A stretch of DNA of 7,967 nt, taken from a virus. Taxonomy: Duplodnaviria; Heunggongvirae; Uroviricota; Caudoviricetes. Position numbers and translations under genes: made by a program. The DNA is taken from IMG/VR virus record IMGVR_UViG_2695420699_000019, one strand, 5' to 3'. The notes beneath the pieces are model-generated. The model did no database searches. It was not told the origin of the DNA and saw only the letters and a program-made list of their open reading frames with translations. This document shows, piece by piece, positions 698-7,967 of the stretch (positions are counted from its first letter, which is position 1; every line of letters starts with the position of its first letter).

Positions 698-1060
698 GGG
701 GCTGATTCTGGATTCGACGGGATTTGCGAAACCCAAGGTGCATGCCGAGGGGCGGTTGGCCTCGTAAAAAGCCGCAAAAAATAGTCGCAAACGACGAAAA
801 CTACGCTTTAGCAGCTTAATAACCTGCTTAGAGCCCTCTCTCCCTAGCCTCCGCTCTTAGGACGGGGATCAAGAGAGGTCAAACCCAAAAGAGATCGCGT
901 GGAAGCCCTGCCTGGGGTTGAAGCGTTAAAACTTAATCAGGCTAGTTTGTTAGTGGCGTGTCCGTCCGCAGCTGGCAAGCGAATGTAAAGACTGACTAAG
1001 CATGTAGTACCGAGGATGTAGGAATTTCGGACGCGGGTTCAACTCCCGCCAGCTCCACCA
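698..1060 (+). ncRNA. ssrA: tmRNA (transfer-messenger RNA, 10Sa RNA), 363 nt
   Basis: Starts GGGGCTGATTCTGGATTCGACGGG and ends GGGTTCAACTCCCGCCAGCTCCACCA (tRNA-Ala-like acceptor/T-arm with encoded CCA). Contains the internal tag reading frame. Length and sequence match E. coli ssrA as I recall it. Confidence 0.97.
787..819 (+). other. tmRNA mRNA-like domain: tag-peptide reading frame ANDENYALAA followed by TAA (a second in-frame TAA at 820-822)
   Basis: GCA AAC GAC GAA AAC TAC GCT TTA GCA GCT TAA read directly from the sequence; this is the canonical E. coli proteolysis tag (the first Ala comes from the charged tmRNA). Confidence 0.9.
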
Positions 1061-1189
1061 ATCATGATTGGACGGTGTAAGGACAACACCAACAAAAACA
1101 GGAAGTTAGCAGTCTCAGCAGGACACCGACCAGACGGTGAGGAGACAAAAAAGGATACGCAAAGGAGCCGCGGCTCTCAAGTGTGAAAG

Positions 1190-1217
1190 AAGCCCGCAAA
1201 TTGCGGGCTTTTTTATT
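1190..1217 (+). terminator. Rho-independent terminator-like hairpin downstream of ssrA
   Basis: Perfect GC-rich inverted repeat GCCCGC (1192-1197) / GCGGGC (1203-1208) with loop AAATT, followed by TTTTTTATT (1209-1217). It lies about 130 nt past the mature tmRNA 3' end. It may terminate the ssrA precursor or insulate the downstream cargo operon. Confidence 0.5.
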
Positions 1218-1269
1218 GATCAGTCAACAATAAACAGTAACCGAATGAGAATTTAATAAGGATATTCAT

Positions 1270-2301
1270 ATGGAAGCTACTGTGGATTCGATTGATTTTC
1301 TGATCCGTAGTGAAGATGATTTTCTAAACTTTCTGGAAGAAATGAAAGCCCGAGAGGGGCTTGATTCTAAAGAGTTTATTTTCCCTAACGTAAAGTTTGC
1401 AGGCTGGCCATCCTTAGACATAAATGTAAAAGGAGAGCGGTATCATTCATCAATTACATCAGCAATGTTGTTTGGTATGTCAATGCTCAACGAGGAGATA
1501 CAGCGGGCGTTTGCAACCATACGATACGGATCGCAGAATCTTCAACGCTTGACTAATGAAGACAAGCAACGACTTGATATAAATTTTAAAATTAGCGAAG
1601 GTTCTAGTGATGCGGAAGGCACCACTGACAAGATCATCAACGCAGTAACTGATTTTTTGCGAGATACTATGTCTGGACTGAACGGCTGGCAGAAAATGCT
1701 TGTTATAATCACAATGGTTGGCGCGGCCAGCACATGTGGTTATCACTACATTTCAGAAAATGCCGTAACAGAAAGACATGCAACTGATCGGCAGGTTGAA
1801 ATTGCAAAAACCACATCCGATGGCATAAACAAAGCCATAGAAGCAACATTAGATTATAAAATCTATGGGAAATCAGCGATTAGCGATAAAGTTACTAGTC
1901 ACGGACAAGCAGGTAAAAGTGCTTTAGTGAAGCAATTAGCTGCTGATCCTACTGTCGAAACCGTGACTTTAGGAAATGAGAAACTAACACGACAAGACCT
2001 AAATACCTACAACAGCCGACAATCTGTAGATAGAGAACGTAAAGAACGAACTGATATATTTTCCATCAAAGGTGTAACCAGAACAGGGCCAACAAATCAG
2101 GATATTAATATTAACGTTGTTAGGGTCTCTAATGACGAATGCTTCACAATCAAAGCTTCAGCTGATGTTATCACCCAAGATGAGTTGACAGCTATTGTTG
2201 ACGCTTTGTCAAACAACTCTCATATTAAAATCAGTTACTTAGAGGTAATTGAAAAGGGTGCTGTTTCTATAGGTCAGTTCAACACTATTGTTTCAGAATA
2301 A
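1270..2301 (+). CDS. Hypothetical protein, 343 aa, no family recognised
   Basis: Long ORF with a good RBS (AAGGA at 1258-1262, 7 nt before the ATG). Strongly acidic N-terminus (MEATVDSIDFLIRSEDDFLNFLEEM). One hydrophobic stretch (WQKMLVIITMVGAASTCGY, about residues 140-158) that could be a single transmembrane helix or buried core. No Walker A or other catalytic motif recognised. AT-rich relative to smpB. Confidence 0.8.
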   Translation: MEATVDSIDFLIRSEDDFLNFLEEMKAREGLDSKEFIFPNVKFAGWPSLDINVKGERYHSSITSAMLFGMSMLNEEIQRAFATIRYGSQNLQRLTNEDKQRLDINFKISEGSSDAEGTTDKIINAVTDFLRDTMSGLNGWQKMLVIITMVGAASTCGYHYISENAVTERHATDRQVEIAKTTSDGINKAIEATLDYKIYGKSAISDKVTSHGQAGKSALVKQLAADPTVETVTLGNEKLTRQDLNTYNSRQSVDRERKERTDIFSIKGVTRTGPTNQDININVVRVSNDECFTIKASADVITQDELTAIVDALSNNSHIKISYLEVIEKGAVSIGQFNTIVSE

Positions 2302-2352
2302 TCACTTAACCCCATTTATGTCGGTTGAGGTTATAAGTCACGGAGACCAGAT

Positions 2353-2697
2353 ATGTCCTTAAAGTATGCACATGAAAAATTTCATACTGCAGTACTTACT
2401 CTTGCGGGCCATGGAAGTATTCAAGAACGCTTGATTAATTCGTATGTTTTTAGCCTTGGGCATCTTAAAACAGCCGATGATATTCCAAATGCCTTACAAA
2501 GCAGGTTCGATGAATTATGTAAGGAACTGACTAAGTTTGATGCCACTGGCGATGAGGGGCGAGTTCAAGCAACAGTATCAAAACTTAACGATTTCGAGAT
2601 CAATAAACTGATCGAAGATATTGTCAGTCTTAACGATGATATTTGCATGAAATTGGCTCTGACGGATGAGACTTACCAAGACATACACCAAAGTTAA
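2353..2697 (+). CDS. Hypothetical small acidic protein, 114 aa, no family recognised
   Basis: ORF 51 bp downstream of the 343-aa ORF on the same strand, so probably an operon. RBS GGAG at 2342-2345, 7 nt before the ATG. Net acidic by my residue count (about 19 D/E versus about 10 K/R); looks helical. Followed by a terminator hairpin. Confidence 0.7.
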   Translation: MSLKYAHEKFHTAVLTLAGHGSIQERLINSYVFSLGHLKTADDIPNALQSRFDELCKELTKFDATGDEGRVQATVSKLNDFEINKLIEDIVSLNDDICMKLALTDETYQDIHQS

Positions 2698-2724
2698 TTG
2701 ATTAAATTCAAAAAGTTAACGTTC

Positions 2725-2756
2725 AACCAGCCAGTTTTTGGCTGGTTTATTGTCTT
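2725..2756. terminator. Probable bidirectional intrinsic terminator between convergent genes
   Basis: Perfect 8-bp stem AACCAGCC (2725-2732) / GGCTGGTT (2740-2747) with loop AGTTTTT, then a T-rich tract on the plus strand (TATTGTCTT); on the minus strand a TTTTT run follows a few nt after the stem. Lies between the stop of the 114-aa gene (2697) and the stop of the minus-strand 70-aa gene (2782). Confidence 0.45.
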
Positions 2757-2781
2757 ATAATATTCTTGCTCGAATGATGCA

Positions 2782-2994
2782 CTATTTATGATGTAATCCG
2801 GACATCAGTTCATGGACAAGATTATCTCTTTCATTGTGTTGCAACCGTAAATGCATAGCAAAAAGGTGAGCACTATCCTCATTCCTCTTCAAGCCATGCT
2901 GTTCAAGATACCCGAAAAAACGGCTTCTCTTATCCGCTATTTCCTGAGTCTGACGTGCAACATTTACCAAATTTTCTAGCGTTTTTCTTGGCAT
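2782..2994 (-). CDS. Hypothetical small protein, 70 aa, no family recognised
   Basis: Minus-strand ORF with a near-consensus RBS (AGGAGG, 7 nt before the ATG; plus-strand complement CCTCCT at about 3002-3007). MPRKTLENLVNVARQTQEIADKRSRFFGYLEQHGLKRNEDSAHLF..., no Cys, basic N-terminus. Lies immediately downstream of the invertase on the same strand. Confidence 0.65.
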   Translation of the reverse strand: MPRKTLENLVNVARQTQEIADKRSRFFGYLEQHGLKRNEDSAHLFAMHLRLQHNERDNLVHELMSGLHHK

Positions 2995-3035
2995 ACTATT
3001 TCCTCCTGAAATTGTTGTAATTCACTAGGATATTC

Positions 3036-3062
3036 ATTTTAATTTGTATCATTTAGTACCAA
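3036..3062 (-). promoter_or_regulatory. Possible sigma70 promoter for the 70-aa gene (TTGGTA - 15 bp - TAAAAT on the minus strand)
   Basis: Minus-strand reading: -35 TTGGTA (complement of 3057-3062), 15-bp spacer, -10 TAAAAT (complement of 3036-3041), about 40 nt upstream of the start codon. Pattern match only; the spacer is short. Confidence 0.2.
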
Positions 3063-3192
3063 AACCGCTATCAATTAACAAAGCCATCGTTGTGGTTTAC
3101 CTTGCAGCCGTTTTTTGTCATTGACTCTATGTGAAAATAATGAATCATCATGAGATTGGCTCACACGTTCTTGAATTCGACGAGCTGTGTCT

Positions 3193-3747
3193 TTATTTAT
3201 CTCCTGCCGGAAACCTCTGATACAAAGTCGATACGCCAACATCATAGATAATCGCAACTTTCTGGCGCGGAACTCCTGATGCAATTAATCGTCCGGCTTG
3301 TGCCCATTGTTCTGGTGTAAGTTTGGGACGACGTCCACCAATTCGTCCCTGTGCGCGAGCAGCTTCCAGTCCAGCTTTTGTTCGTTCAACAATCAGTTCT
3401 CGTTCCATTTCAGCCAGGGCCCCCATCACATGAAAGAAAAAGCGCCCCATTGGGGTACTGGTATCAATTGAATCCGTCAGACTACGAAAGTTGATGCCTC
3501 GTTCGCGCAACTCCTCCACCAGCACGACAAGATGCCGCATACTGCGCCCCAGTCGGTCCAGTTTCCAGACCACCAGCGTATCGCCTGCCGATAATGTCCT
3601 GAGCAGTTTTTTCAGTCCCGGCCTTTCGGACTTTGTACCGCTTATCTTGTCTTCAAAAATCAGCTCACATCCTGCACAGTTCAGCGCATTACGTTGTAGA
3701 TCTGTGTTCTGGTCATTTGTTGATACGCGTACATAGCCAATAAGCAT
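3193..3747 (-). CDS. Serine-recombinase DNA invertase, Gin/Pin/Cin/Hin (Din) family, 184 aa
   Basis: Translation from the Met at 3747: MLIGYVRVSTNDQNTDLQRNAL...DTLVVWKLDRLGRSMRHL...GRFFFHVMGALAEMERELIVERT...GRIGGRRPKLT...YDVGVSTLYQRF. Contains the catalytic-serine motif YVRVSTNDQ and a C-terminal HTH region, and is close to e14 Pin/Mu Gin as I recall them. RBS GGGGGA 6 nt before this ATG. The ORF track's longer start (3783, MASFLLLSGGST...) is probably not used. Confidence 0.93.
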   Translation of the reverse strand: MLIGYVRVSTNDQNTDLQRNALNCAGCELIFEDKISGTKSERPGLKKLLRTLSAGDTLVVWKLDRLGRSMRHLVVLVEELRERGINFRSLTDSIDTSTPMGRFFFHVMGALAEMERELIVERTKAGLEAARAQGRIGGRRPKLTPEQWAQAGRLIASGVPRQKVAIIYDVGVSTLYQRFPAGDK

Positions 3748-3801
3748 GGTAGATCCCCCTGACAAAAGCAGGAATGATGCCATTTGCTCGTTATTTCTGC
3801 A

Positions 3802-3827
3802 TTTTCATAAACGTTGGTTTGGGAGAA
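3802..3827 (+). other. Din-type 26-bp recombination crossover site (site a): TTTTCATAAACG-TT-GGTTTGGGAGAA
   Basis: Two imperfectly symmetric 12-bp half-sites around a central TT; resembles hix/gix sites (hixL as I recall: TTCTTGAAAACC-AA-GGTTTTTGATAA). Lies 55 bp upstream of the invertase start, as in Mu gin/gixR. The right half-site encodes the conserved GLGE junction of the tail-fibre cassettes. Confidence 0.6.
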
Positions 3828-4040
3828 GCGGCAAAACGGAATGTGGGCAACGGGGAAAACCAAATCCCTGATATGTCTTTCTGGACGGTTACTGGTGGCA
3901 ATGGAAATTTTGTGATTCGTCAACCTGACGGGCTAATCACTCAGATGGTTACTGTAAGTATAAGTGGTCCAGTGGCGATGAATGGAATGACTGATAATGC
4001 TTATGCCATTACAGGTTCTAATAAGTCTTATATTGCCACA
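3828..4040 (+). pseudogene. Fragment of a tail-fibre variable cassette (first 71 codons only), identical to the start of the cassette at 5998-6210
   Basis: Region 3814-4040 is an exact copy of 5984-6210 (encodes [71 protein letters not shown]). It stops abruptly at 4040, where sequence from inside the invertase gene begins. Confidence 0.6.
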
Positions 4041-4367
4041 ACCCATCACATGAAAGAAAAAGCGCCCCATTGGGGTACTGGTATCAATTGAATCCGTCAG
4101 ACTACGAAAGTTGATGCCTCGTTCGCGCAACTCCTCCACCAGCACGACAAGATGCCGCATACTGCGCCCCAGTCGGTCCAGTTTCCAGACCACCAGCGTA
4201 TCGCCTGCCGATAATGTCCTGAGCAGTTTTTTCAGTCCCGGCCTTTCGGACTTTGTACCGCTTATCTTGTCTTCAAAAATCAGCTCGCATCCTGCACAGT
4301 TCAGCGCATTACGTTGTAGATCTGTGTTCTGGTCATTTGTTGACACACGTACATAGCCAATAAGCAT
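4041..4367 (-). pseudogene. Truncated second copy of the DNA invertase (N-terminal 109 codons only)
   Basis: 4042-4458 repeats 3422-3838 with 4 substitutions. It encodes MLIGYVRVSTNDQ...GRFFFHVMG, then runs into unrelated antisense tail-fibre sequence (CGNIRLIRT...). Lacks the C-terminal part of the invertase including the DNA-binding HTH. Confidence 0.85.
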
Positions 4368-4421
4368 GGTAGATCTCCCTGACAAAAGCAGGAATGATGC
4401 CATTTGCTCGTTATTTCTGCA

Positions 4422-4447
4422 TTTTCATAAACGTTGGTTTGGGAGAA
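4422..4447 (+). other. Din-type crossover site (site b), same sequence and orientation as site a
   Basis: Part of the duplicated unit, 620 bp offset from site a: TTTTCATAAACG-TT-GGTTTGGGAGAA. Confidence 0.6.
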
Positions 4448-4807
4448 GCGGCAAAACGGGATGTAGGGACAGGGGAAAATCAGATACCGGACATGGCCTC
4501 TTTTGCCAGTGGTGATGGATGGATGAAATTACCCAACGGTAAAATTCTGCAATATGGTCGAGGCGAGGCTATGCCGAAATTATCGACGCAAACAATGAGG
4601 ATTACATTTCCTATCCCTTTCCCTAAAAAAGCGGACTGCGCCATTCTTACCCATTCTGGTGATGGCGGTGCGCCTTTAGGCGCTGGGCGAGGGTTCGTGA
4701 TGACTGCAGAAGGCCCTACGTTAACCGGCTTTAATTCTGCTTACAGAACGTCATCAACCAGTGACACGGTATCTATGCATTACAGTTGGTGGGCTGTTGG
4801 TGAGTAA
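4448..4807 (+). CDS. Tail-fibre C-terminal variable cassette B (silent; no constant 5' part attached)
   Basis: In frame with the GLGE junction of site b: ...[54 protein letters not shown]...HYSWWAVGE, TAA at 4805-4807. Same N-terminal junction motif as the other cassettes but a different C-terminal (receptor-binding) sequence. The upstream ATG at 4394 has poor RBS context and lies antisense to the invertase copy. Confidence 0.65.
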   Translation, partial: AAKRDVGTGENQIPDMASFASGDGWMKLPNGKILQYGRGEAMPKLSTQTMRITFPIPFPKKADCAILTHSGDGGAPLGAGRGFVMTAEGPTLTGFNSAYRTSSTSDTVSMHYSWWAVGE

Positions 4808-4827
4808 TTTTATTCAGGGTGATTTAT

Positions 4828-5688
<861 letters not shown>

Positions 5689-5694
5689 TAATCC

Positions 5695-6438
5695 ATGCAT
5701 CGTATAGACACGAAAACCGCGCAGAAGGATAAGTTCGGCGCGGGTAAGAACGGTTTTACCCGTGGTAACCCCCAGACCGGCACACCTGCCACCGATCTGG
5801 ATGATGACTACTTTGACATGTTGCAGGAAGAACTCTGCAGCGTGGTGGAGGCATCCGGTGCCAGCCTGGAGAAGGGGCGGCATGACCAGCTGCTTACCGC
5901 GCTTCGTGCGCTGCTGTTAAGCCGCAAGAATCCGTTTGGCGATATCAAATCTGATGGCACGGTGAAAACGGCTCTCGAAAACCTTGGTTTGGGAGAAGCG
6001 GCAAAACGGAATGTGGGCAACGGGGAAAACCAAATCCCTGATATGTCTTTCTGGACGGTTACTGGTGGCAATGGAAATTTTGTGATTCGTCAACCTGACG
6101 GGCTAATCACTCAGATGGTTACTGTAAGTATAAGTGGTCCAGTGGCGATGAATGGAATGACTGATAATGCTTATGCCATTACAGGTTCTAATAAGTCTTA
6201 TATTGCCACAGCCACATTGCCCTTTGTATTTCCTAATAAGGTACTGGGCGTTATCCCTCTGGTATCAACAACAGCCTATGGTGGTGTATCCAGTAATATT
6301 ACAGGTTCATACGCGACGGCGGTTTGTTCTTTTGCCGCTGTCCGGGGGAATAATACGATTGTATTCAAAGTCGACAAACCACTGAATGCAGCCTTTCCTT
6401 CAGATACCAGCGTCTCAGCGTTAATCATTGGACGGTAA
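5695..6438 (+). CDS. Short side-tail-fibre protein (247 aa): constant N-terminal part fused through crossover site c to variable cassette C (the expressed cassette in this orientation)
   Basis: ATG at 5695 with RBS GGAG 6 nt upstream. N-terminal 97 aa ([21 protein letters not shown]...[10 protein letters not shown]), then the variable part ([19 protein letters not shown]...SALIIGR). The junction motif L-G-L-G-E resembles the constant/variable junction of lambda Stf and Mu S; size and context resemble e14 StfP (from memory). Confidence 0.8.
5972..5997 (+). other. Din-type crossover site (site c): CTCTCGAAAACC-TT-GGTTTGGGAGAA, inside the tail-fibre gene at the constant/variable junction
   Basis: Right half-site and centre identical to sites a and b; the left half-site differs and resembles the hixL left half (TTCTTGAAAACC, from memory). 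It sits where constant and variable tail-fibre parts are joined, as gixL does in Mu. Confidence 0.65.
5984..6210 (+). repeat. Exact 227-bp direct repeat, partner at 3814-4040
   Basis: Manual comparison shows identical sequence across the right half of the crossover site and the first 71 codons of cassette C. Confidence 0.85.
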
Positions 6439-6440
6439 TA

Positions 6441-6884
6441 ATGAACTCAGTATTCTTTTCACCCGGAAGTAAAAGTTTTTATCTACAAGAATTGTTTCCA
6501 GAATATGAGGATGCGGGAACGCTTCCAGATGATGTTATTGAAATTACCCGAGAAACATATGAGCAATTTCTTGGGCTGCATCCAGAAGGGAAAGAAATTG
6601 GCGCTGACAGTTCAGGACGGCCAATATGGATTAATTCCCCACCGCCTTCAAAAGAGGATGAGGTGTTGATGGCTGAAATGAAAAAAATATCTTTGGTTTC
6701 AGAAGCCAATACCTACATCAATACCCATCAGTGGCCTGGCAAAGCTGCTATTGGTCGTCTGAAAGGTAACGAGCTGGAGCAATATAATTTATGGCTGGAT
6801 TATCTGGACGCACTGGAACTGGTTGATCCCTCCAGTGCTCCAGATATTGAATGGCCTACGCCTCCGGCAGTTCAGGCCAGATGA
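6441..6884 (+). CDS. Tail-fibre assembly protein (Tfa), cassette C partner, 147 aa
   Basis: Starts 2 nt after the tail-fibre stop (TAATAATG). Ends ...[31 protein letters not shown], typical of lambda Tfa / Mu U chaperones. Confidence 0.8.
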   Translation: MNSVFFSPGSKSFYLQELFPEYEDAGTLPDDVIEITRETYEQFLGLHPEGKEIGADSSGRPIWINSPPPSKEDEVLMAEMKKISLVSEANTYINTHQWPGKAAIGRLKGNELEQYNLWLDYLDALELVDPSSAPDIEWPTPPAVQAR

Positions 6885-7458
6885 CATTCGGCGCGGTGCT
6901 GGTATCTGTTGCCGTCACCGCGTCAATGTAATCCAGCACAGCGTTAAGCTGGGTTGTTTCTGCCTGCGTCAGTTTCCGTCCGGCCTGTAATTTCAGCTGA
7001 ATCAGACTGATGGAAGCCATTGCAGCATCAATCAGTGACTGGCGCTGTGCTTCTGCCGCGTCTACTGCGGCGCTATGCTGTGCCTCAGTATCGGTTACCC
7101 ATTTCTCACCATCCCATTTATCGTATGGAGATAAAGGGGCGATAGTGGTTGTATTTTCAGGGTAATCACCCGGAGCTTTGATTTCTTTTGATTCTCCTGT
7201 TTCTGTGCTAAAGACGATTTCACCACGATGGTCTGGCACATATTCCCATGAGTTAAAATCTGCAGAACGGCAAATTGCATACCCAGTTTTGTATGAGCCA
7301 GGAGCATCTAAACAGGAACATGCCGGAATGCCGACACCCACAGCAAGATATTCAGTTGATGTGAAAATATATTCCCGTGTTTCACCATCATAGTTATAAA
7401 CCGTAATATTTCCTGCCTGGGTGGCGATAAATTCGTTATTTAATACAGCGTAATCCAT
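6856..7458 (-). CDS. Tail-fibre assembly protein (Tfa), cassette D partner, 200 aa, inverted orientation
   Basis: MDYAVLNNEFIATQAGNITVYNYDGETREYIF...WDGEKWVTDTEAQ...DTSTAPNVIWPELPEA, typical Tfa architecture. Its 3' end overlaps the 3' end of the convergent tfa at 6441-6884 by 29 bp. Same length as e14 TfaE as I recall. Confidence 0.8.
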   Translation of the reverse strand: MDYAVLNNEFIATQAGNITVYNYDGETREYIFTSTEYLAVGVGIPACSCLDAPGSYKTGYAICRSADFNSWEYVPDHRGEIVFSTETGESKEIKAPGDYPENTTTIAPLSPYDKWDGEKWVTDTEAQHSAAVDAAEAQRQSLIDAAMASISLIQLKLQAGRKLTQAETTQLNAVLDYIDAVTATDTSTAPNVIWPELPEA

Positions 7459-7967
7459 TATGCAGCCCTCACGATATACGCAAATGCCAGGTTCCGTGGT
7501 CTGGTTTCTTTAATTAAAGAGGAGGCATCAGGTGAACTCACTGATTCAGCACCATTTCTTCCACCAGTGGTATAAGTAAAAACTCTTTCACTGTTAGACC
7601 AGTAATCCACACCAACTGTTTTTGCTGATGAAAAAATGGTTTCATCAGATATAACCTGTTCTATTCCATACGGGATATTAGTAACTGACCCCACTTTTGT
7701 AGGTATTCCATGATTATGAGAAATTACTGCATGCTCTTGATTCGTTAATAAAGTACGACCGCTATCCACTCCACGCCCGTCATCCCAGCCACGAATAAAC
7801 TCACCACGTAAATCAGGCAATTTATTTGTCGGATAAGCCTTTGCCAGTTCCGGGTATTCTTCAGCAGAAAAAGCGGCACCGTTGCATTTCAGCCAGCCTG
7901 TTGGCGGAGTGGCGGAAGGCCACGGAACAGGCACGCCAACGGGTAATGCCGAACCTTCTCCCAAACC
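7458..7967 (-). CDS. Tail-fibre C-terminal variable cassette D (inverted, silent in this orientation); 5' end runs off the window
   Basis: Minus-strand translation (G)LGEGSALPVGVPVPWPSATPPTGWLKCNGAAFSAEEYPELAKAYPTNKLPDLRGEFIRGW...RPRNLAFAYIVRAA resembles the lambda Stf C-terminal region (from memory). Its stop overlaps the start of the downstream tfa (TAATG). It begins with the GLGE junction at the window edge; the M shown in the ORF track is a TTG Leu codon inside the junction. Confidence 0.8.
   Translation of the reverse strand, partial: GLGEGSALPVGVPVPWPSATPPTGWLKCNGAAFSAEEYPELAKAYPTNKLPDLRGEFIRGWDDGRGVDSGRTLLTNQEHAVISHNHGIPTKVGSVTNIPYGIEQVISDETIFSSAKTVGVDYWSNSERVFTYTTGGRNGAESVSSPDASSLIKETRPRNLAFAYIVRAA
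7956..7967 (-). other. Partial Din-type crossover site (site d, right half-site GGTTTGGGAGAA on the minus strand); the rest lies beyond the window
   Basis: Plus strand 7956-7967 is TTCTCCCAAACC, the reverse complement of the conserved half-site. It is inverted relative to sites a, b and c, so c and d form an inverted pair flanking about 2 kb (cassette C + tfa / tfa + cassette D). Confidence 0.5.

Follow-up and report, generated by a model that had tools for sequence, protein, structure and literature searches.

The 7,967-nt IMG/VR virus record IMGVR_UViG_2695420699_000019 (Caudoviricetes; the whole stretch analysed, referred to here as the window) carries an AT-rich block of three uncharacterised genes, ORF1–ORF3, between the tmRNA gene ssrA and pin, which encodes a Din-family serine DNA invertase. 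The block is a horizontally swapped accessory (moron) cassette at the end of a prophage that is proximal to ssrA and the attachment site (att) and distal to the integrase gene int. The window begins with smpB (1–483; 51.6% guanine plus cytosine (GC), 0.57 at third codon positions (GC3)), and ssrA follows on the plus strand at 698–1060 (ARAGORN; Rfam RF00023, 295.8 bits; 52.9% GC). A further plus-strand segment of ~160 bp (1061–1221) contains a rho-independent terminator hairpin, seen as an inverted repeat at 1186–1214, and forms the left flank of the cassette. Next on the plus strand come the ORF1 module (1222–2303), made up of a short upstream region and ORF1 itself (1270–2301; 343 amino acids (aa), PHROG 6191), and ORF2 (2353–2697; 114 aa), an acidic orphan (isoelectric point (pI) 4.9) predicted to be all-helical. 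ORF3 (2782–2994; 70 aa) is a basic orphan (pI 9.4) on the minus strand with an AGGAGG Shine–Dalgarno sequence 7 nt upstream, and a terminator scan placed a bidirectional hairpin (10-bp stem, then a T-run) at 2725–2747 between the convergent ORF2 and ORF3. A non-coding AT-rich stretch (2995–3167; 35% GC) separates ORF3 from the conserved 3' flank of pin and includes the right edge of the cassette. On the minus strand, pin occupies 3193–3747 when the start given by the Prokaryotic Genome Annotation Pipeline (PGAP) is used, with an open frame that reaches 3783, and has 49.6% GC. Its product matches Pfam Resolvase (1.8e-51) and HTH_7 (3.9e-13) and is annotated as pinE, 184 aa, in five genomes; tail-fibre cassettes with Gp53-like, tail-collar and Caudo_TAP genes lie beside it, the make-up of a Din-family invertase locus.

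The original prediction had judged by eye that the block at 1230–3192 was AT-rich (35–40% GC against ~50%). Computation bears this out, with 38.5% GC in that interval and 38.4% in the refined cassette (1222–3167) versus 47.6% in the remaining window, including 46.5% in the tail-fibre region. Sliding-window GC falls from ~0.52 to 0.36–0.42 over ~1200–3300 and then returns to 0.49–0.54, and everywhere outside the block, windows as long as it have at least 44.6% GC. Codon usage shows the same shift, with GC3 values of 0.34, 0.34 and 0.37 in ORF1, ORF2 and ORF3 versus 0.57 in smpB and 0.43 in pin.

All three genes have a Shine–Dalgarno sequence ~7 nt upstream, and in a six-frame codon-usage score the annotated frame was the best for each, by a small margin for ORF3. 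ORF1 and ORF2 are separated by a 51-nt gap and share a terminator. A promoter scan found no consensus sigma-70 promoter upstream of ORF3 or on the minus strand of 2995–3167. By eye, a weak TCAACA-17-GAGAAT was the sole promoter-like sequence. An Rfam scan of the window returned the tmRNA alone, and its sub-threshold leader matches correspond to the terminator hairpin. We also noted a TTG-start ORF of 69 aa at 3075–3284 on the minus strand, overlapping the 3' end of pin; its own frame scored best in the codon test, it had no family matches, and it is probably spurious.

Both edges of the cassette are marked by breaks in homology. The ~160-bp post-ssrA segment is 88–95% identical in ~4170 of 5426 E. 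coli genomes and is kept in Mangrovibacter, in Cronobacter and in a secondary att copy of E. coli H7; the E. coli homology ends at 1213–1221, placing the left edge of the cassette at ~1217–1221, directly after the ssrA terminator. Homology to other pin elements resumes at the right edge, at 3164–3168, ~25 nt beyond the pin stop codon. The last ~34 nt of ssrA (1028–1061) are the attL core of the prophage. In E. coli 042, where the block has the same position as in the window, a 34-nt direct repeat of window 1028–1061 lies ~29 kb away, after int (locus L014:6516–6549). The prophage there reads, in order, tail fibre, lysis, Q, replication, cI/cro-like, yfdPQR, int, AAA ATPase and Dam-like methylase, and the integrase of the next island adjoins the far att repeat. 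Between the block and pin there is no further copy of the att core or of the 3' end of ssrA. Because the att repeats of E. coli 042 bracket the element and none separates the block from pin, we place the block within the prophage that the att sites delimit, at the end away from int. This prophage is lambdoid, of the e14/CPS-53 type, and integrated in the 3' end of ssrA, with the block between attL and the 3' end of pin.

Several observations concern other parts of such elements. The interval between int and attR in E. coli 042 is a second cargo slot, holding a 577-aa AAA-family ATPase and a DNA adenine methylase (L014:3731–6443), and an AAA ATPase also lies immediately to the left of the secondary att copy in E. 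coli H7. The ~160-bp terminator segment accompanies partial ssrA 3' copies at secondary att sites (L016:2299–2481; L005:~7762–7960), which suggests that elements targeting ssrA bring with them or maintain a replacement terminator for this gene. E. coli FDAARGOS_1287 has an inverted ssrA 3' copy 13 kb from ssrA (L002:33213–33243), and P2-like tail genes with a second invertase abut its pin region (L002:24748–32581), an arrangement suggesting inversion or fusion of two invertase-bearing prophages.

The position had been likened to the slots in which e14 carries mcrA and Mu carries com-mom, and this parallel stands. The block lies between the 3' end of pin and att, the same position as in the e14 order pinE-mcrA-attR and the Mu order gin-com-mom-right end. 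Placing the block downstream of the invertase is accurate for ORF3, the only gene co-oriented with pin, but not for ORF1 and ORF2, which run inward from the ssrA side, converging on ORF3 and toward pin.

Related pin elements differ in what they carry at this point, so the slot does not always hold the same conserved genes. In E. coli H7 the left flank (93.5%, beside the secondary ssrA 3' copy) and the pin flank (81%) are the same, with different genes between them: BRO-N, a helix-turn-helix (HTH) plus ImmA/IrrE gene, two small ORFs and a LEM-3-like GIY-YIG gene. The last of these, convergent with pin, is the commonest alternative occupant in E. coli (O157:H7, O121 and others). The slot of the K-12 e14 element reads pinE-mcrA-icd', with mcrA before attR; that of ECONIH2 holds a lone 215-aa hypothetical gene; and that of UTAK-5 holds a HipA-family kinase and a DUF3037 protein, followed by DinI and umuDC-like genes (L028:2297–3852), the kinase and its partner being another candidate defence or stress pair. 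In Mu, gin is followed by com and mom and then by the right end of the genome. P2-like prophages are different in that their invertase sits between tail-fibre and tail-sheath genes, so that its neighbour is structural and the slot does not hold cargo. The presence of different cargo between conserved flanks in related pin-bearing prophages supports a variable cargo slot.

The original prediction had also proposed separate acquisition, and here the foreign composition agrees, although a single acquisition event does not. In Mangrovibacter yixingensis the order is smpB, ssrA, an ORF1 homologue (81% aa identity) and pin (81% aa), with ORF2 and ORF3 absent, and DNA homology to the window (76%) spans ssrA to position 2303 and then stops. 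Citrobacter sp. Awk 4 carries a 47%-identical ORF1 homologue that converges on an 87%-identical pin ~110 bp away; this version too lacks ORF3, and no tRNA or tmRNA gene was found in the ORF1–pin locus. Since the Mangrovibacter and Citrobacter versions carry ORF1 alone, the block divides into an ORF1 module (1222–2303) and an ORF2/ORF3 module (2304–3167), and ORF2 and ORF3 were added only in the E. coli/Salmonella version. Cronobacter presents a third arrangement: on the distal side of unrelated islands or a P2-like prophage there is a degenerate copy of the ssrA 3' end, accompanied by the 160-bp segment and a homologue of ORF1 (82% aa), and these loci yielded no pin-like sequence. The occurrence of ORF1 beside pin in three genera marks it as a recurrent occupant of the slot and not a one-off.

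ORF2 and ORF3 are far more restricted. Among 5.8 billion proteins, ORF2 had only six matches and ORF3 only three near-identical clusters; neither matched Pfam, NCBIfam, PADLOC or PHROG, and sequence searches of the PDB returned nothing meaningful for either. Three ORF2 homologues (P0078–P0080, 84–86% identity) were considered as a possible second context, but the contig checked (P0080, L024) proved to be the same locus, frameshifted, at 99.25% DNA identity. A single-sequence AlphaFold2 (AF2) model of ORF2 was discarded because of its predicted local distance difference test (pLDDT) score of 52. A role for ORF2 and ORF3 as modulator or regulator is only a guess.

The full-length block was found in 46 of the 5426 complete E. 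coli genomes, with ≥99.6% identity among the matches listed, and many of the carriers are clinical or animal isolates. The order smpB-ssrA-ORF1-ORF2-ORF3-pinE-tail fibre was present in all five carrier genomes inspected, and the PGAP annotation of these genomes lists ORF1–ORF3 as hypothetical proteins. The block also appears by itself, at 99.8% identity, as NZ_CP148395.1 (PLSDB; 2637 bp, labelled a plasmid, from a single-cell assembly), and Logan contig L024 (2676 bp) covers the same stretch. Rather than replicons, these two sequences are probably assembly unitigs that end at the repeated 160-bp segment and at pin.

The description of the three genes as uncharacterised holds up, as none had a Pfam, NCBIfam or PADLOC match (PADLOC-DB v2.0, E ≤ 1 for all three ORFs) and ORF1 alone fell into a PHROG. 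ORF1 matches PHROG 6191, a phage protein family without assigned function, from end to end (E = 6.8e-38; residues 7–340 on profile positions 5–331 of 338). A profile search recovered 839 relatives among 1.84 billion cluster representatives, 495 of them at E ≤ 1e-10 and most 320–350 aa long. They come mainly from Enterobacterales, with remote relatives in Pseudomonas and Pseudoalteromonas. In an alignment of 42 family members (41 remote relatives plus ORF1) every sequence matched PHROG 6191, and no Pfam or PADLOC match was consistent, the PADLOC matches being scattered single ones at E 4e-4 to 1e-2.

The AF2 model of ORF1 (pLDDT 74) comprises an N-terminal alpha/beta domain (1–135), a helix (139–154), a helical region (169–224) and a C-terminal, OB-like beta-barrel (229–340). 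The helix at 139–154 coincides with the sole hydrophobic segment of the protein, and the position of this segment is conserved, with a Kyte–Doolittle (KD) value ≥1.6 in 31 of 33 close and 30 of 42 remote members. Among close relatives, the charges flanking the predicted transmembrane (TM) helix favour an orientation with the N-terminus inside and the C-terminus outside. Invariant motifs of the N-terminal domain include F43, G45-W46-P47, I51-N52-V53-K54-G55 and E110-G111-S112, and further invariant motifs lie in the barrel.

The genomic contexts of the family are varied. The closest relatives of ORF1 lie between cI and N, co-oriented with cI, in phage phi458, the PhiR12 phages, two metagenomic lambdoid lineages (65–67% identity) and Yersinia (the last two at loci L018–L023 and L029–L030). 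The Izhakiella contigs (L044/L045) end inside the ORF1 homologue, so that only a cI-like gene just upstream is visible. In Serratia, Klebsiella and Scandinavium, relatives lie between icd and an e14-type int. An Enterobacter relative adjoins tRNA-Pro at the tail-fibre end of a prophage, and one in Serratia also adjoins tRNA-Pro, the only adjacency visible there. A Xenorhabdus relative lies beside tail-fibre genes, and one Klebsiella subfamily is found inside a siphophage tail module. As the only constant gene across these contexts, ORF1 is a self-contained single-gene module. A remote relative (30% identity) in the marine gammaproteobacterium Pseudoalteromonas sp. P1-9 lies 2.5 kb upstream of ssrA (L042:6001–6921 and 9419–9773), which hints that the family's link with ssrA-associated elements extends beyond Enterobacterales.

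The interval between cI and N is also the location of rexAB in lambda. This interval is a mosaic hotspot that holds rexAB or bstA, abortive-infection and exclusion genes expressed in lysogens, and the promoter that drives it ranks among the most active of prophages in lysogeny (PMC8585504). A defence role for ORF1 has also been predicted by machine learning. DefensePredictor (DeWeirdt, Mahoney & Laub, Science 2026; PMC13092281) lists cluster WP_021530618.1 in Table S10 as a "Putative novel defense gene", one of 1,041 uncharacterised clusters, with a mean log-odds of 6.86 for the best-scoring member and no HHblits or Foldseek link to known defence. This is the exact PGAP accession of ORF1 in the five carrier genomes. 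The conserved motifs of the family are absent from those sequences of validated proteins that were examined for that paper (PMC13092281), and the literature searched (phi458, PhiR12, accessions and the PHROG identifier) yielded no functional study of the family. The DefensePredictor call on this cluster is a machine-learning prediction only.

On balance, we favour the interpretation that the block is a mosaic, two-module moron cassette at a prophage end in which ORF1 acts as a lysogen-expressed, membrane-anchored phage-exclusion protein. We infer the expression in lysogens, the membrane topology and the anti-phage activity, and regard ORF1 as a reasonable candidate anti-phage gene. It would be produced in the lysogen as a bitopic inner-membrane protein, with a cytoplasmic N-terminal domain of ~135 aa bearing the invariant GWP..INVKG and EGS motifs, a TM helix at ~141–161 and then an extracytoplasmic helical stalk and OB-like barrel. 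Such a protein would shield its host cell against infection by other phages. It would most likely act at the inner membrane, where it would either block genome entry or set off membrane-based abortive infection. As a stand-alone gene, ORF1 moves among the accessory slots of prophages. Action at the inner membrane is proposed with low confidence; it is favoured by the single-gene organisation, the conserved TM helix with a predicted extracytoplasmic domain, and the absence of a recognisable enzymatic fold.

A number of results weigh against this interpretation. ORF1 shows no similarity to any PADLOC v2 defence family, and the promoter scan detected no consensus sigma-70 promoter upstream of it. 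Its TM helix in the window is only moderately hydrophobic (KD19 1.41), and the flanking charge bias is weak in remote family members. The N-terminal domain had no structural match, and thus no biochemical activity can be named for ORF1. Homology to RexAB was considered and rejected, as hhalign of the family profile gave probabilities of 0.7% for lambda RexA and 0.2% for RexB. The DefensePredictor call is not fully independent of our own argument because it partly reflects the same kind of signal. Moreover, lysogenic-conversion genes that have no part in defence, lambda bor and lom among them, typically occupy accessory slots too.

The block, or at least ORF1, might accordingly be read as a non-defence lysogenic-conversion envelope gene that alters host physiology, surface or virulence in the manner of bor and lom. 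The logic of the accessory slot serves this idea as well as it serves defence, and the many clinical or animal isolates among the carriers would suit it. We nonetheless consider it unlikely: no signal peptide or secretion signature was found in ORF1, whose hydrophobic segment is internal, the DefensePredictor score speaks for defence, its OB fold is of a generic kind, and the cI–N slot of the closest homologues is best known for exclusion and abortive-infection genes (PMC8585504). Were ORF1 not cargo but a conserved component of the phage life cycle, acting for example in lysis, injection or tail assembly, this could explain the Klebsiella subfamily inside a tail-gene module and the several homologues that adjoin tail-fibre genes. 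However, homologues in the immunity region share the orientation of cI, which implies that they are expressed in the lysogen and not late; the family occupies at least five different slots, the gene is missing from closely related prophages, and the allele is present in only 46 of 5426 E. coli genomes, all of which make such a role very improbable. The restriction-related cargo suggested by the original prediction, whether anti-restriction or a modification-dependent nuclease as with e14 mcrA or Mu mom, finds similarly little credit. It draws on positional analogy with e14 and Mu only, together with the GIY-YIG nuclease among other occupants of the slot, whereas HNH, GIY-YIG, methyltransferase, Mom and other nuclease families were absent from ORF1–ORF3 at E ≤ 1 and the ORF1 model combines a membrane helix with an OB barrel and has no nuclease fold among its top structural matches.

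Two further explanations concern the make-up and history of the block. Its genes might form an addiction or toxin-antitoxin (TA) module that stabilises the prophage end, with ORF1 as a membrane toxin and ORF2 as its antidote, or with ORF3 as a small regulator or antitoxin. The tight ORF1–ORF2 operon, with its short gap and shared terminator, and the small size of acidic ORF2 and basic ORF3 are what such a module might look like, but Pfam, PADLOC and NCBIfam scans gave no TA family match, and neither ORF2 nor ORF3 accompanies the ORF1 homologues in any other context examined. ORF1 therefore does not need the other two genes; an obligate TA pair was rejected on this ground, and a TA module of any kind seems quite improbable. 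The block could also have been left behind as a remnant, attached to ssrA and its terminator, by an earlier element integrated in ssrA, with the pin prophage or its truncated end now abutting it. Tandem arrays at ssrA are common, the 160-bp segment is present at two places in many genomes, ORF1 and ORF2 are transcribed away from ssrA and opposite to pin, and the Cronobacter loci combine an ssrA 3' copy, the segment and an ORF1 homologue with no pin-like sequence found. Against this, the only att copies of E. coli 042 bracket the whole element including the block, with no att remnant between block and pin, and the Citrobacter ORF1 homologue abuts pin in a locus that yielded neither a tRNA nor a tmRNA gene. 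Mangrovibacter repeats the ssrA-ORF1-pin order at ~76% DNA identity, which indicates that the linkage is old. We judge the remnant explanation improbable, and retain that of a mosaic cassette with ORF1 as a putative exclusion gene.

The part of the window beyond pin (3784–7967) consists of scrambled tail-fibre C-terminal cassettes and tail-fibre assembly genes. It includes a truncated second copy of pin (3933–4403) whose first ~120 aa are identical, an exact 300-nt direct repeat (3422–3721 = 4042–4341), a 235-nt repeat (3809–4043 = 5979–6213), and three invertase crossover-like sites (3809, 4429 and 5979), all in direct orientation. The arrangement of this right half was absent from the complete E. 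coli genomes searched, in which the best coverage was 73%. The scrambled region could be a product of Pin-mediated duplication or deletion, or an assembly artefact from a mixed inversion population. Among the cassettes lies an ORF resembling orfA of IS3-family transposases (5263–5691; HTH_Tnp_1, E = 3e-12), with a 247-aa ORF that has a weak gp53-like C-terminal match just downstream.

Prophage ends and immunity regions are where temperate phages store genes that influence a lysogen's susceptibility to other phages. Through one uncharacterised family, whose diverged members number in the hundreds and which is missing from Pfam and the defence database, the cassette ties together two of these hotspots: the position after pin and the rex slot of lambda. 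Were ORF1 to prove a defence or exclusion protein, it would represent a new single-gene membrane system. More speculatively, and with rather less conviction than we attach to ORF1 in this cassette, PHROG 6191 as a whole might be a new and widespread single-gene, membrane-anchored anti-phage system that replaces rexAB in the cI–N slot and also travels to prophage ends. The N-terminal domain with its GWP..INVKG and EGS motifs would then be an effector or sensor, the OB-like domain would contact components of the incoming phage, and ORF2 and ORF3 would act as modulators that are specific to the lineage and possibly arose de novo. The locus offers a compact test case, as the gene is 1 kb long and natural versions exist with and without ORF2 and ORF3. 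Should ORF1 not be a defence gene, the cassette would still illustrate cleanly how cargo is exchanged where elements integrate in ssrA. As ORF1 had previously been picked out as a candidate in a machine-learning screen, the practical value is modest.

T4 Imm, HK97 gp15 and P22 SieA are small to mid-size phage or prophage inner-membrane exclusion proteins which act alone in the protected cell; ORF1 differs from them in being larger (343 aa), in having two soluble domains and in that its function is predicted. With lambda rexAB and BTP1 bstA it shares, through its closest homologues, the cI–N slot and co-orientation with cI, and like RexB it is membrane-embedded by prediction. However, ORF1 is unrelated in sequence to RexA and RexB and lacks the KilA-N domain of BstA, and in the window it lies between ssrA and pin and not next to cI. 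It also consists of a single gene encoding one TM helix, whereas rexAB comprises two genes, of which rexB is reported to be an ion channel (PMC8585504). The locus as a whole resembles the e14 pinE-mcrA and Mu gin-com-mom arrangements, in which a Din-family invertase controlling tail-fibre cassettes is followed by accessory cargo and then the end of the element, and the pin gene of the window has ~90% DNA identity to e14 pinE. It departs from them in that its cargo bears no relation to McrA (HNH) or Com/Mom and has no restriction-related domain, and in that its main operon, instead of following pin, is convergent with it, and from e14 also in that the element is integrated in ssrA and not icd. 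Variable cargo between conserved phage flanks is likewise a feature of the P2 and P4 defence hotspots (Rousset et al. 2022, PMC9122126), although here the phage is lambdoid and the hotspot lies at the pin end. The cassette is thus an instance of prophage moron or defence-hotspot cargo, and not a new kind of system.

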